From assembly GCA_039802265.1 (NCBI GenBank), contig JBDRWI010000047.1, positions 1 through 18,111 on the forward strand: a stretch of DNA of 18,111 nucleotides, read 5' to 3'. This document shows, piece after piece, positions 5,307 to 13,063 of the stretch. Under the pieces are notes generated by a model. The model had not been told where the DNA came from and ran no database searches. It was given only the letters and a program-made list of their open reading frames with translations. This DNA is from a candidate division WOR-3 bacterium. GTDB lineage: Bacteria > Hydrothermota > Tepidihabitantia > SM23-42 > JAOAFX01. Every line of letters begins with the position of its first letter. Position 1 is the first letter of the stretch. The position numbers and the translations under genes are program-made.

Positions 5307-5334
5307 ATTTTACCTAAATTTATAGTTTTGTCAA
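5307..5334 (-). promoter_or_regulatory. ftsK promoter TTGACA-N16-TAAAAT, apparently leaderless
   Basis: Minus strand TTGACA 5334-5329, TAAAAT 5312-5307, ATG 5 nt later; no SD. Confidence 0.7.
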
Positions 5335-5365
5335 TACACCCAGCGTTATTCAAATAAACCAACCC

Positions 5366-5393
5366 TTGACCCATAAGTATTTCTGACTATAAT
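5366..5393 (+). promoter_or_regulatory. Promoter of the ATPase operon, TTGACC-N16-TATAAT, apparently leaderless
   Basis: TTGACC 5366-5371, TATAAT 5388-5393, ATG at 5400 after 6 nt; no SD. Confidence 0.72.
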
Positions 5394-5399
5394 AAAATT

Positions 5400-6239
5400 A
5401 TGCAGGAAGTCCTTGAAGGGTTGAAAGGGCTAATAAAAAGTTCCCAGCGGATTAAAAAATTGCTTGATAGTTATACAAAGTTAAAAGAAGACCCAGTACT
5501 TAATGCCTATTTAATGGAAAAGAAAGTCCTTGAAATATCAAAGATTGTCAATTCCCTGCCGGATTTTGTGATCAAAGAATCCTTAATCACCTGGTTGAGT
5601 CAGCAGAAGGAGATACTGGAAAAGGCAAAGGAAGATTTCCGTTTTATGGTGGGTGAGCGGATTAAAGAATTTTTTCAAAAGGAAAACATAAAAATAAAAG
5701 GGCAATTTCCTAATCTGCGTATCGGCCTTTATACATTGAAGATGAATTTTGAATTCGGTGAGGCAACACTCTATTTTGGTCCGGAGATTGAAAGGATAAA
5801 ATCAAAAATTCCCCTTGAGCCAATGACAATTTACCAGACAGTGAAGCAATATGATGAAGAGTTGAAAGATATAAAGTTTGAACCCTATGAGTTTCATCAG
5901 GATTTATTGACTGCCTATCAAAGAAGGCTTTCTTTGTTGAACAAACCCTGTGGTGAAAAGTTGTTAATCACTGAGGTATTGAGTGAATATGTGATTACCA
6001 AGCAACCACCACAATTTTTTACTGACCCCCGAAAGGAAAACTATAAAGAATTTTCCCGGACAAAGCTTTCTTATCTGTTATATCGCTATAAAAACTCCGA
6101 ACTTTCCATTAAAAAACCCCGTTTTTATGTCGCCACATTTGATGCTACCACCGATAGAAGGCGTGCCTTATGGATTCCGGATAATGAAGAAGGTGAGGGC
6201 ACATACTACTCGTACATTGCCTTTGAGAAAGACACTTAA
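5400..6239 (+). CDS. Hypothetical protein (279 aa), first gene of the tandem DUF2791 ATPase operon
   Basis: Long ORF with its own promoter; helical/coiled-coil-like N-terminus; C-terminal alpha/beta segment FSRTKLSYLLYRY..VATFDATTDRRRALWIP..GEGTYYSYIAF; stop codon 1 nt before the next ATG. Confidence 0.85.
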   Translation: MQEVLEGLKGLIKSSQRIKKLLDSYTKLKEDPVLNAYLMEKKVLEISKIVNSLPDFVIKESLITWLSQQKEILEKAKEDFRFMVGERIKEFFQKENIKIKGQFPNLRIGLYTLKMNFEFGEATLYFGPEIERIKSKIPLEPMTIYQTVKQYDEELKDIKFEPYEFHQDLLTAYQRRLSLLNKPCGEKLLITEVLSEYVITKQPPQFFTDPRKENYKEFSRTKLSYLLYRYKNSELSIKKPRFYVATFDATTDRRRALWIPDNEEGEGTYYSYIAFEKDT

Positions 6240-6240
6240 G

Positions 6241-7497
6241 ATGGATAGAATAACTCCAACTCTTGCCAAGGCGATTATTCATAAACTTGCTGGTTATGGA
6301 ACACCCCCGGAGTTTGGCGTTGAATACTTCAGTGTTGGGCTTGATCCCTATCTGCGGGTTATTGAAGATGAATATCTCAATGATGTTTTGAAGTGTAACC
6401 TTTCTTCTTTTAAATTGGTTACCGGTAATTATGGCGGTGGTAAGACCCATTTTCTATATTCAGTCCGCAATCTCGCCTGGAAATATAACTATGTAACAAG
6501 TTATGTATCATTGAGCGCGACTGAATGCCCCTTTGACCGCCTTGAACTGGTCTATAAGAAGATCGTTTCCAATATCACCTCGGCATTGAGTGAAGAGGAT
6601 ATACTCAAGCCCTGGGAGTTGGGTATTGATGTTCTTCTGCGCAAGTGGTATCAAAGGGTAAAGGAAGAGCGAAACTTCCTCTCCCTGGTCAAAAATTTAG
6701 AGAGCATAAGTTATACAAATGGTATAAAGGGGGCTTTGATGAATCTCGCCAGTGATGATGAAGAAGGTTTCACTTCTTTGGTTCAGTGGCTGAAGGGGGA
6801 AGAGATACCAAGGGAATTGAGATTGAGATACCGTATATCGGAAAGGATTGACCGCACCACTGCCTTCAGGATGCTCAGGAGTTTGATTCAGTTTGTAAAT
6901 TCAATCGGATATAGCGGGCTCATTTTGTTGTTTGACGAGGCAGAACGGGGAATGAGTATTGCCTCTGCCAGGGATAAAAGGAGGGCACTTGATAATCTGC
7001 GTCAGATTATTGATGAATGTGGAAATTCACGCCTGCCTGGGGCAATGTTTTTCTATGCAGTTCCAGATGAGAATCTTCTGCTTGAGGGAACCGGCGGGGT
7101 TTATGAGGCATTGAATCAGCGCCTCCGTTCAAGTTTTACCAAGGTAAATCCGATGGGAGTGAAGATAAACCTTGAGGAGATTGGAATAACTCCGGAGGAT
7201 TTTCTATTAAGTTTGAGCAAGAAACTGGCTGGTATATTTGAATCTGCTTATTCATTTGAATTTGAACCGGCAGTTTTTGATAAATCGGTGAAAAATATGA
7301 TAGACGCAATCCTGGAGATGCAGATTCTTGATATCAGTTATCGCCGGATATTTGTGGTGGGAATAATTGATGCCTTTCAGAAAATGCGAGATAAGAACAT
7401 ACCGATAGATAAAAATACCGCCCGTCAAATCCTGCGTGCAACAGCAAGTATGCTTTTAAAGAAAGAAAAAGAGGAAGTTGAACGCGAAGAATTTTAA
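6241..7497 (+). CDS. BrxD/DUF2791-family P-loop ATPase (paralog 1)
   Basis: GTPPEFGVEYFSVG; Walker A GNYGGGKTH; LVQWLKGE; Walker B GYSGLILLFDEAE; YEALNQRL. ATG 6241 directly follows the upstream stop, so the 6127 start in the ORF track is unlikely. Confidence 0.88.
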   Translation: MDRITPTLAKAIIHKLAGYGTPPEFGVEYFSVGLDPYLRVIEDEYLNDVLKCNLSSFKLVTGNYGGGKTHFLYSVRNLAWKYNYVTSYVSLSATECPFDRLELVYKKIVSNITSALSEEDILKPWELGIDVLLRKWYQRVKEERNFLSLVKNLESISYTNGIKGALMNLASDDEEGFTSLVQWLKGEEIPRELRLRYRISERIDRTTAFRMLRSLIQFVNSIGYSGLILLFDEAERGMSIASARDKRRALDNLRQIIDECGNSRLPGAMFFYAVPDENLLLEGTGGVYEALNQRLRSSFTKVNPMGVKINLEEIGITPEDFLLSLSKKLAGIFESAYSFEFEPAVFDKSVKNMIDAILEMQILDISYRRIFVVGIIDAFQKMRDKNIPIDKNTARQILRATASMLLKKEKEEVEREEF

Positions 7498-8770
7498 GAC
7501 CGTCTTTCATAATATCTTTGGTGAGGGAATTGTCTTAGAAACACGGTGGGATGGTATTGAGGCCCGTGTCAAATTCCGCAGCGGGCTTTGCCTTTGGCTT
7601 CCAACAAAATGGTTAAAACCGCTAAAAATAGAGGACCGGGAGATTGACCGAATTTCGTCGCGGAGGCTCCTTGAGGCATTCAGAATGGGGATTGTCCCCC
7701 ATCAGGACATTGAATATTTTACCTTCGGTCGGAATTACGAGATTGATCTTTTTCAACAATCCCTTTCGCGGCTGAAGAGAGGTGAAGGGGGTGTCTTTCT
7801 GATTGAGGGCGATTATGGTTCTGGCAAGACCCACCTTGCTGAATATCTGCGCCATCTGGCATTGAAGCAGGGTTTCCCTACAGCCTATTGCGAACTGCAT
7901 ATTCAAGAGACTCCACCTTATCGCCCCAAAAAGATTTATCATGAACTTGTCTATAGCCTCCGTTATATTCAGAATGATTATGAATATAGCTTTCGCGATC
8001 TCTTAAGAAATGCAACGGAAATTGATATCACCGGACACTGTTTTTGGGCGCCGGTTTTAAAAAAGGTAAAGGCGATAAAAGAAGAGGATTTACAAGCCGA
8101 GGTCTTCTGGCAGTGGATTGAAGGCGAATCAACCAAGGAATATGCCATTGACCCACTTTCTCCATATCGCATCCGGGGTGGATATGAGATACCTGCCCTC
8201 TACGACTTTTCCACGGCCAGTGATTTTTATAATTATCTATTGAGTGGAATAAGTTATCTTGTCAATAAACTCGGTATGGGTGGCCTTGTTTTAGTGATTG
8301 ACGAATTTGAAGAGATTAATCATGTCTGGGATTATCGCCTCCGGGAAAAGGGCTTTGCATTCCTTGAAGGACTGGTCAGGATTTCTTTAAATGACGAAGA
8401 AATGAAGAAAATTGATAGTTCAATGCCGCACAATCAGGTGCGGCCGACGCCTTATGCCTATAAAGATACGCATATTCTATTGTTGCTCACAACAACCCCA
8501 ACTGAAGAGGGAGATGTGACAAGATTTATTCCCGACAGGATTTTCCTGAGAAAATTCACGCGTGCCGAGTTTGAGATAATCTTTGATAATCTTCGGCGGA
8601 TTTATAAGACTGCCTACCCGGGCTTTGAAATTGAGGAAAAAATATGTAATAATATATTAAATGCTGCATTGAAAAAGAATCCGCAGGAATTGAGGGAATT
8701 CATAAAATTCGTTGTAGAAGCCTTTGACTGGATGAGATTATGCTACATTCCCCCGGGAAAAGGCGGTTAA
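7478..8770 (+). CDS. BrxD/DUF2791-family P-loop ATPase (paralog 2) with N-terminal Tudor/SH3-like domain
   Basis: LEAFRMGIVP..IEYFTFGR; Walker A GDYGSGKTH; WQWIEGE; Walker B GLVLVIDEFE; N-terminal VFHNIFGEGIV..ARVKF. TTG start overlapping the upstream gene by 20 nt, with GAGGA just upstream. Confidence 0.85.
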   Translation: MNAKNFKTVFHNIFGEGIVLETRWDGIEARVKFRSGLCLWLPTKWLKPLKIEDREIDRISSRRLLEAFRMGIVPHQDIEYFTFGRNYEIDLFQQSLSRLKRGEGGVFLIEGDYGSGKTHLAEYLRHLALKQGFPTAYCELHIQETPPYRPKKIYHELVYSLRYIQNDYEYSFRDLLRNATEIDITGHCFWAPVLKKVKAIKEEDLQAEVFWQWIEGESTKEYAIDPLSPYRIRGGYEIPALYDFSTASDFYNYLLSGISYLVNKLGMGGLVLVIDEFEEINHVWDYRLREKGFAFLEGLVRISLNDEEMKKIDSSMPHNQVRPTPYAYKDTHILLLLTTTPTEEGDVTRFIPDRIFLRKFTRAEFEIIFDNLRRIYKTAYPGFEIEEKICNNILNAALKKNPQELREFIKFVVEAFDWMRLCYIPPGKGG

Positions 8771-11272: not shown

Positions 11273-13063
11273 TCATTCTTTTAAAATTTCTTTATAACTG
11301 TCGAGAACCACCTTGTAGTATTTTAATGCCTTTTCTTCATCACCCAGGGCGCGATAGATATCTGCCAGGCCTTCATTTGCTGAAACGAGTGTCTCAAGTT
11401 CAGCCAGCTCATTTTTTCGGCGACATAATTCAAGGGTTTTATTATAATAGGCTATTGCTGATTCGTATCCCCCCTTCTTAAATGCCAAACGAGCCGATTT
11501 TAGATAGTATTCAATAGCCCTTTTATAATTTTCTGCCAACTCATAATGGAATGCTGCATATTCTTCGTAGCCTTCTAATCTGCGGTAATAATCGGCCAGT
11601 CTGGTATGTCTCGCCTGCTTATCGGGTATTAGATTATAAACTTCCTCATGTAATAGGGGTGAGGTGAAGATATAACCCTTGCTGGACTTTCTGAGGTAAT
11701 TTTTTTGCACCAATAACTCAAAGCCCTCAACCTGGCCCTCAGCCGGGAATTCCGCGAGGTTAATTTCCTCACCAAAGACAGCCAGACTAAAGAGAAAATT
11801 TTTGTTTTCCCCCAATAGCTCAACACGGCGCTTGATTATTGTCTTTATATCAGTAAACGGAAGGTGATAATCCATAATTGGAGTCTGCCCAGTGTATTGA
11901 TGATAGAGATAGCTGAGTTTTTCTTCGTTATAAAGGGCAAGATATTGATTGATGTGAAACAGGGAGGTTGGCGGAAAGTTAATTCGTTCACCGATATTCT
12001 GTTCAATATATTCTTCAATTTGACGTCGCTCGATACTGATCAGTTCAAATTCTTTCAGTCCAGAGATGTTTACCTGGGAATGCTGGGATGAAAAAATGAA
12101 CCAGACATTTTCATCAATCAATTTCTGGAGCAGGTTCTGAATGAATCGCTCGGAAGAGGAATCAACATTTTCAATATCTTCAAAAATTATCAGAATGCGT
12201 TTGGAAAAACTCATTCTTTTAATAATTTCCGCAATACTACTTGTAAACAGTTCCGTCCTCATTCTTATATCCATCTTTCTTAATATATTGTCCTCGTCGC
12301 CGATAGTGAGAAAATCAAGAACTGCAAGATAGGTGGTGCCAATATCTGCAATTCCGATTTCGTGTAATCTCTTTTCAATCTGTTTCTGCCTTTCTTCAAT
12401 ACTTGTCTTTTCGTCAATTTTAAAAATCTGGTTAACCAATTCGGTTATCGGTTTAAATGTAATATTAACGGGATAGCGGGGGCAATTGATTTTAAAGATT
12501 TCATATTCAGCCGACCACTTTTCAATAAGTTGCTCCAGGAAAAAGGTCTTTCCACTACCCGGTGGTCCGAAGATTAAGACACTTTTGGCTACACTTAATA
12601 AACTCCGGAGTGCATCCATGGTCATCGCTCGCGTGATCACGGTTCGCTCCAGTTTTGGTGAGGGGAAGGTTATCTTGCTCGATGGGGCATCTATCCGGTA
12701 TACTAAGATTTGTGTCTTCATACCTTCAACAGCAAGCATACCCAATGAGGTAATTTGATAATTTTCAATTACAGCCTGTTCTATATCCTGAGAAATCAGA
12801 ATTTCACCAAATTGGGCAATCTTTGCGAGCCCACGCGTAAGCCCGAGGTATTGCGAGATACCAAATCTTATTTCCTGAAAATTTTCTTTCAATTTAAATA
12901 AACAGTTTATAAAAAAGATGTCATTGTGCGATGCGATGATGAGATTTTTTTCCACCTGTTCTATACGCCCGCCAAAATTATTAAAGGTGTGAATGAGCGA
13001 ATTGAATTCACTCTCATTCAAGTCCCGGATAATTGCGCTGATATAATATTCCATATTCTTCAA
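11273..13063 (-). CDS. Degenerate class III nucleotidyl-cyclase-like domain + STAND/AAA_16-type ATPase + TPR protein
   Basis: Cyclase-fold remnants FGGRIEQ, IRFGIS, AQFGEILIS, LGMLAVEG..ILVYRI; Walker A GPPGSGKT; Walker B ILIIFEDIENVD; YIFTSPLLHEEVY; AFHYELA; TPRs. Start is TTG 13063 or ATG 13054. Confidence 0.78.
   Translation of the reverse strand: MKNMEYYISAIIRDLNESEFNSLIHTFNNFGGRIEQVEKNLIIASHNDIFFINCLFKLKENFQEIRFGISQYLGLTRGLAKIAQFGEILISQDIEQAVIENYQITSLGMLAVEGMKTQILVYRIDAPSSKITFPSPKLERTVITRAMTMDALRSLLSVAKSVLIFGPPGSGKTFFLEQLIEKWSAEYEIFKINCPRYPVNITFKPITELVNQIFKIDEKTSIEERQKQIEKRLHEIGIADIGTTYLAVLDFLTIGDEDNILRKMDIRMRTELFTSSIAEIIKRMSFSKRILIIFEDIENVDSSSERFIQNLLQKLIDENVWFIFSSQHSQVNISGLKEFELISIERRQIEEYIEQNIGERINFPPTSLFHINQYLALYNEEKLSYLYHQYTGQTPIMDYHLPFTDIKTIIKRRVELLGENKNFLFSLAVFGEEINLAEFPAEGQVEGFELLVQKNYLRKSSKGYIFTSPLLHEEVYNLIPDKQARHTRLADYYRRLEGYEEYAAFHYELAENYKRAIEYYLKSARLAFKKGGYESAIAYYNKTLELCRRKNELAELETLVSANEGLADIYRALGDEEKALKYYKVVLDSYKEILKE

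Follow-up and report, generated by a model that had tools for sequence, protein, structure and literature searches.

The window analysed here is the whole 18,111 nt stretch of contig JBDRWI010000047.1 from a candidate division WOR-3 bacterium (assembly GCA_039802265.1), and it encodes a BrxD/SngB-like AAA+ ATPase (ATPase 2) with a small N-terminal Tudor-like domain related to the C-terminal tail of PcrA/UvrD helicases. ATPase 2 is part of a four-gene module together with a Tudor-less paralog (ATPase 1), a protein of no known family (the product of gene X) and an Lhr-type helicase. We tentatively suggest, at rather less than an even chance, that the Tudor domain is a tethered targeting arm through which a helicase loader is directed to a partner in host transcription or repair, such as a stalled complex. 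The genome under study is referred to as G000, and the comparison genomes are from the same phylum (271 genomes in total).

The ~48-aa extension with a PcrA/UvrD-type motif recognized in the first-pass annotation is real, translated and conserved. Positions 7478–7621 are the codons for residues 1–48 of a 430-aa open reading frame (ORF) at 7478–8770, and the peptide quoted earlier corresponds to residues 7–48. The TTG at 7478 is the sole ATG, GTG or TTG codon between the in-frame stop at 7457–7459 and Met70, and many homologs have a methionine at the equivalent position in the alignment, so that the start for which a homolog check had been proposed holds. A total of 333 homologs were found, and the H..FG.G motif is present in 113 of the 120 listed, with the other seven comprising six N-terminally truncated records and one with a scrambled start. 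In 89 ungapped copies of the domain, codon positions 1, 2 and 3 carry 1340, 1021 and 2633 differences respectively, all synonymous codons are used at the invariant residues, and each of the five other frames has stops in 38–76 of the copies; together, these indicate that the domain is translated in the frame of ORF 7478. Across 1.99 million six-frame residues of the genome the signature pattern has a single match (mean 0 in 20 shuffles), and the domain is as well conserved as the ATPase core in the ATPase 2 alignment. ATPase 1 (start 6241) is alignable to ATPase 2 from about residue 55 onward and thus lacks the domain, as originally described. AlphaFold2 predicts strands at residues 8–11, 15–23, 28–33, 38–42 and 47–49 and a short helical turn at 43–45, with pLDDT values of 85–89 over residues 11–50. 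The profiles and this modelled secondary structure point to a five-stranded Tudor/SH3-like barrel at residues 8–49, consistent with the fold first proposed; fold matches of the whole ATPase 2 model covered the ATPase part only.

Kinship with the PcrA/UvrD tail is also borne out. Alignment of the domain with 18 WOR-3 PcrA tails by hhalign gives 96.5% (E 7e-10, residues 4–36), and a profile built from PcrA tails alone has the domain as its single match in G000 (E 0.002), at a score of 20.6 bits that compares with 7.7 or less for 5000 shuffles. In a PDB sequence search with a domain profile from 38 copies the top four matches are all UvrD-type helicases, at weak values (E 0.027–0.17), followed by KDM4A Tudor domains. 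The cut-off for Pfam PF21196 is not reached, with no match for the window's domain and two of the 38 profile members matching at E 0.04 or worse. The domain has in common with the PcrA/UvrD C-terminal Tudor (PF21196; PDB 5DMA, 7EGT, 7EGS and 6YI2) the pattern V.H..[FW]G.G.[VI]...V.F, the five-stranded barrel, and the histidine and aromatic residue of the binding face, but differs in its N-terminal position on an AAA+ ATPase, in its shorter hairpins, in the absence of a conserved K712, and in having an invariant Arg23 and Trp40 of its own.

The domain profile has 78 matches in a representative library, of which 53 have the same ATPase core, and there is no full-length UvrD or other architecture among the 78. 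Forty-eight distant fusions were aligned, with four ATPase-bearing matches omitted for being close fragments or a fusion, or because the motif was absent. The histidine and two glycines are fixed in this set by the selection criterion, and Arg23 is present in 46, Gly26 in 40, Glu28 in 39, and Phe33 and Trp40 in all 48. Arg23 and Trp40 are features of neither PcrA nor Mfd and, on sequence grounds, the domain forms a subfamily of its own within the PcrA/UvrD Tudor. Four of 51 scanned distant homologs have a second Tudor above the PF21196 cut-off (best E 1.8e-11), three of which appear by eye to have the PcrA-type lysine. The Walker A motif is at residue 106–279 in the distant fusions, showing that the Tudor–ATPase linker varies in length. 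In one record (P0245) the end of ATPase 1, the Tudor domain and ATPase 2 are joined in one frame, likely through an assembly frameshift.

The first-pass annotation also suggested that the domain may dock on RNA polymerase. PcrA binding to RNA polymerase is reported to require H681, W684, K712 and L714 (PMC5397179), and the docking site to be a TGE hairpin, present in UvrB as well as in the SI1 insert of RpoB (PMC8318588). The counterparts of H681, W684 and L714 are the invariant His11 and Phe14 and the aliphatic residues at positions 39 and 41, and a conserved lysine for K712 (K727, K708) is absent from positions 38 and 39 in either register. The strand register is ambiguous; position 39 is Leu in 93% of close homologs and position 38 is variable, and in 13 of the 48 distant homologs position 39 is Arg or Lys. 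The TGE hairpin was not found in G000 RpoB, and the helicase-interaction hairpin appears eroded within its SI1 insert (C41, L259). We compared 40 aligned RpoB segments (hand-picked from 62 matches, with one dropped for lacking a frame), reading the hairpin tip from the alignment: [TS]GE is present in 13 of the 20 genomes with a PcrA tail (10 with a stricter regular expression), in one of the 20 without, and in none of the 15 with the module and a tail-less PcrA, including G000. The G000 PcrA/UvrD protein is 641 aa and has no Tudor tail (C11, L138:1387–3312), and RpoB hairpin loss tracks PcrA tail loss across WOR-3. In 46 genomes compared, one of them with a misread frame, the UvrB hairpins show no difference related to whether PcrA has a tail. 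The lack of the conserved lysine together with RpoB hairpin loss makes docking on RNA polymerase in the PcrA manner unlikely, and for RpoB in the WOR-3 lineage these sequences largely refute it; docking through some other surface is conceivable, although rather unlikely. The joint loss of PcrA tail and RpoB hairpin, and the second, true PcrA-type Tudors, nonetheless keep a transcription or repair role in play.

PF21196 undercounts divergent PcrA tails (47 of 271 genomes), and a custom profile was therefore used, with tails counted as matches assignable to PcrA among the matches listed; 42 further weak matches are outside the count, and the listed weak matches in module-bearing genomes are mostly ATPase 2 itself and some Mfd. 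Counted in this way, tails are present in seven of the 132 genomes with the module, in 97 of the 139 without it, and in one of the 131 genomes of the class; outside the class, six genomes have both, 12 have the module only, 97 the tail only, and 25 neither. Nine genomes of family f35 (e.g. G232, G240) have a TGA within the PcrA-tail match, which is probably a true stop because the listed f35 UvrB matches have no TGA. UvrB, present in 254 of the 271 genomes, is absent from the G000 assembly (89% complete, UvrA present), probably as a result of an assembly gap.

Similarity to the CarD/Mfd RNA-polymerase-interacting domain (RID; PF02559), which had been put forward as well, is weak. A Tudor-like fold is common to both, and the LWLP of the domain aligns with the f-o-f-P strand, through which the Mfd RID is described as pairing with and gripping the RpoB beta-1 lobe (PMC3001067); this strand, with Trp as the aromatic, is present in 107 of the 120 close homologs listed. 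However, the beta2–beta3 hairpin of the domain is shorter and the proline is not kept in distant homologs (Pro42 in seven of 48). The hhalign match is weak (8%, E 0.004, or 38%, E 3e-4, with distant members included) and not above shuffles, 416 of 5000 of which score as well. An equivalence of Leu39 with Mfd L499 was considered and rejected, since L499 is placed on strand 2 (PMC3001067).

The window contains the following features of the module, all on the forward strand.

5366..5393, +: sigma-70-type promoter, TTGACC-16-TATAAT, an 11/12 match ending 6 nt before the gene X start
5400..6239, +: gene X, 279 aa, no known family
6241..7497, +: ATPase 1, 418 aa, BrxD/SngB-like (PF10923, E 4e-44), with intact Walker A and B motifs and no Tudor
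7478..8770, +: ATPase 2, 430 aa, Tudor and BrxD/SngB-like AAA+ core (PF10923, E 1.8e-27)
7499..7624, +: predicted Tudor domain, residues 8–49 of ATPase 2, PcrA/UvrD-type barrel with family-specific Arg23, Gly26, Glu28 and Trp40
7808..7831, +: Walker A of ATPase 2, residues 111–118, with G111, Y113, G114, G116 and K117 invariant in 70 sequences
8300..8305, +: D275 and E276, the acidic Walker B residues of ATPase 2, both unchanged across 70 sequences

The start of ATPase 1 is taken from homolog alignments, and its 3′ end is overlapped by 20 nt by the 5′ end of ATPase 2. The modelled ATPase 2 core has an Orc1/Cdc6-type fold (2qby_B, Z 16.2, rmsd 3.0, 233 aligned) and no winged helix; both ATPases retain their catalytic motifs and this type of fold. 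The gene X model (pLDDT 92) has a three-helix bundle (residues 1–93), a beta-meander plus helix (99–156) and a C-terminal alpha/beta part whose secondary structure reads like a winged helix. Gene X has no match in Pfam, PADLOC, NCBIfam models or sequence profiles, and the fold search returned nothing significant, the three-helix-bundle matches (Z up to 9) being generic; a likeness to MIT was also noted. The fourth gene encodes a 670-aa BrxHI/SngC-like, Lhr-type helicase; in PADLOC, both ATPases match BrxD/SngB best and the helicase matches BrxHI/SngC best. In 65 of the 66 loci whose flanks are long enough, gene X and ATPase 1 lie 5′ of ATPase 2, and the helicase is the next gene after ATPase 2 in 73 of 100, with many of the loci in these counts being from close relatives. 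In G000 the helicase gene is on a separate contig (C29:8771–10777; L279:4772–6778), is 68% identical to the L042 copy, and is flanked by TrpB-like and polyprenyl synthase/Dxs-like genes (named by reading the sequences). The genes are retained where the operon is split, as in G000 and in families f41 and f43.

Sites resembling the gene X promoter number 11 in the region compared with 9.8 in shuffles, which is weak alone, and, of 61 distinct upstream regions from homologous loci, 50 have a promoter-like element within 12 nt of the gene X start, a count made without a shuffle control. The gene X transcript is probably leaderless. In the 92-nt gap at 5307–5400, near-consensus promoters for ftsK and gene X lie back to back and end at or just before the start codons, and leaderless transcripts may be common. 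No shared operator was found upstream of gene X. A near-perfect palindrome ~120 nt upstream of a lexA-like gene in G000 (C90, ~816–833) is a candidate operator, and a palindrome of this type was not found upstream of pcrA, mfd, the helicase gene or gene X. The downstream glyoxalase gene was rejected as a module member, as it adjoins the module in G000 and G125 only. A family-4 glycosyltransferase gene is often 3′ of the helicase gene (a cluster in 28 loci; e.g. L080:6459–7655), and its G000 counterpart is a 32% match found only elsewhere. Other genes in the window include one for a protein with FG-GAP repeats and, at its C-terminus, a secretion sorting domain, PF18962 (212–2014, + strand), and one for a 596-aa STAND-like protein with an AAA_16-type ATPase and C-terminal TPRs (11273–13063, − strand).

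ATPase 2, gene X and helicase family matches are present in 130, 125 and 122 of the 271 genomes, mostly in concert (all three occur in 115 of the 132 genomes with at least one) and in the same families. The module is in 114 of the 131 genomes of the WOR-3 class, with four class families (15 genomes) lacking it, and is patchy outside the class (18 of 140). All ten starred clades in the ATPase 2 tree are found again in the RpoB tree (18 genomes), and these patterns point to the module being near-core and vertically inherited in the class. Close homologs are named as WOR-3, and similar clusters are mostly from Chloroflexota and Thermodesulfobacteriota. There is no match in phages or viral contigs, and none of full length in plasmids, which have only distant BrxD-like cores without the domain. 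There are two departures. G049 (L294) has all four genes with a Tudor-less ATPase 2, and has kept its PcrA tail; G130 (L298, C72) has a second, divergent operon copy, which may have come in by horizontal transfer and whose helicase match is interrupted by a TGA.

In the explanation we tentatively favor, the two ATPases would form a mixed oligomer acting as an ORC-like loader, with the gene X protein providing DNA binding, and together they would load or activate the Lhr-type helicase, as proposed for BrxD and BrxHI (PMC12839542). The Tudor domain would use its Arg23/Glu28/Trp40 surface to grip a host protein belonging to stalled transcription or repair complexes, candidates being RNA polymerase at a non-PcrA site or a repair factor. 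The helicase would thereby be carried to stalled complexes or to RNA:DNA hybrids, in a lineage where PcrA no longer has its link to RNA polymerase, and the module would be kept for genome maintenance; RNA:DNA unwinding has been reported for mycobacterial Lhr (PMC5758891). The variable linker and the absence of the domain from the intact G049 operon make the Tudor look like a targeting arm, and the G049 four genes without it suit an accessory role. Several observations weigh against this explanation: the absent lysine and RpoB hairpin (none of the 15 module-bearing, tail-less genomes having [TS]GE), the poor Mfd RID similarity and the low retention of Pro42 in distant homologs, the fact that seven genomes across the phylum have both module and PcrA tail and 42 have neither, and that the anti-correlation of the two reflects about two lineages whose members are kin and not independent. 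In addition, the Tudor-less G049 operon is a single case, a LexA-like box (inferred from lexA alone) is upstream of gene X in only two of 62 sequences with about one expected, the conserved neighbours include no gene for repair or transcription (24 neighbours annotated), and the nearest characterized relatives are anti-phage systems. A more ambitious version we consider quite improbable. In it, a defence-type module has been domesticated class-wide and replaces PcrA in clearing stalled transcription complexes and R-loops, the PcrA tail and RpoB hairpin having been lost while the Tudor on an ORC-like loader uses a new surface to bring the Lhr-type helicase to RNA polymerase.

The Tudor could alternatively bind inside the module, to the helicase, the gene X protein or ATPase 1, as part of loading and in a cellular job independent of RNA polymerase. 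Retention of Arg23 (46/48) and Trp40 (48/48) in very distant homologs is as expected for a co-inherited partner, and the association of the domain with a single architecture (53 of 78 matches with the same ATPase, none with full-length UvrD) agrees with this. By eye, a D-x-x-[ST]-G hairpin-like stretch follows the winged helix of the helicase, but this pattern is general in Lhr-type helicases, which counts against an internal partner, as do the whole G049 operon without the domain and the widely varying linker length; we regard this as possible, though on the unlikely side. A sensing role in phage takeover had been suggested at the outset, and the module could be a Shango-like anti-phage system whose Tudor senses a phage protein, a modified protein or a nucleic acid. 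The best PADLOC matches are to BrxD/SngB and BrxHI/SngC, similar proteins occur in Chloroflexota and Thermodesulfobacteriota clusters, the module is patchy outside the class with a divergent second copy in G130, and Shango is reported to protect against phage (bioRxiv 2022.05.11.491447, 2022.11.11.516204). However, the single-copy, near-core and vertical inheritance in the class fits housekeeping better than sensing of phage takeover, the neighbours are mostly housekeeping genes, there is no TerB, nuclease or methylase in the module, and divergence would be expected of a phage sensor, whereas the domain is conserved to the same degree as the ATPase core. We regard an anti-phage role as unlikely. 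Very improbable is a PcrA/UvrD-style docking on the TGE helicase-interaction hairpin of RNA polymerase or UvrB. The clear PcrA-tail homology, the kept His11, Phe14 and aliphatic residue at the L714 position, Arg or Lys at position 39 in 13 of the 48 distant homologs, and a degenerate D-x-x-[TS]-G hairpin in the UvrB of many relatives are in its favor, but the WOR-3 copies have no conserved lysine and [TS]GE in RpoB is restricted as described (0/15 against 13/20 with a tail).

No mechanism has been established for the BrxD-type ATPases of Shango and BREX type 2, which have been described as ATPases without further domains. ATPase 2 bears a domain for gripping protein whose surface is fixed and specific to the family, and there is a natural domain-less variant, such that the partner of the Tudor offers a direct route to how ATPase–helicase pairs are aimed. 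Should this partner prove to be RNA polymerase or a repair factor, the module would be an immune-type module turned to housekeeping, and a second route to resolving transcription–replication conflicts. The class-wide joint loss of PcrA tail and RpoB hairpin is also independent comparative support for the published PcrA–RpoB interface.

A PcrA-type Tudor, proposed to bind RNA polymerase, is present on another DNA-acting enzyme, mycobacterial DinX (PMC6511836). There the Tudor is C-terminal on a Y-family polymerase and the binding residues are reportedly kept (PMC6511836), unlike in ATPase 2. The module as a whole resembles Shango (TerB-domain protein SngA, ATPase SngB and helicase SngC), with which it shares a BrxD-type ATPase, an Lhr-type helicase and an upstream partner gene. 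The SngB-like ATPase is next to the SngC-like helicase in the 73 of 100 loci noted above, with a separate contig in G000. It differs from Shango in having two ATPases, the Tudor fusion, and gene X in place of SngA (gene X has no TerB match among Pfam, PADLOC and NCBIfam models), and in its core rather than defence-island location. TerB–ATPase–Lhr neighbourhoods are said to have been described by Anantharaman et al. in 2012. The BREX type 2 BrxD–BrxHI dyad similarly couples an Orc/Cdc6-clade ATPase with a BrxHI-like helicase, and loading or activation of the helicase by the ATPase is proposed for it (PMC12839542). BrxD is described there as a standalone ATPase that has no additional domains (PMC12839542), in contrast to the Tudor-bearing ATPase 2. 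There are no PglW, PglX, PglZ or BrxC proteins in the window or among recurring neighbours, and the module ATPases score 80 and 128 bits with the BrxD equivalog NF033438 (NCBIfam), against a cut-off of 350. The single PglZ match in G000 is a 503-aa protein that starts with a receiver-like domain and is beside a sensor-like gene. A keyword search of the literature, of a scope that did not extend to the 2012 Ter-systems paper or to supplements (those of PMC12839542 could hold such architectures), found no description of the Tudor–ATPase fusion or of the four-gene module. By its sequences the module resembles both Shango and the BREX-2 dyad and belongs to neither, and it is a new variation on the Shango/BREX-2 kind of ATPase–helicase system.

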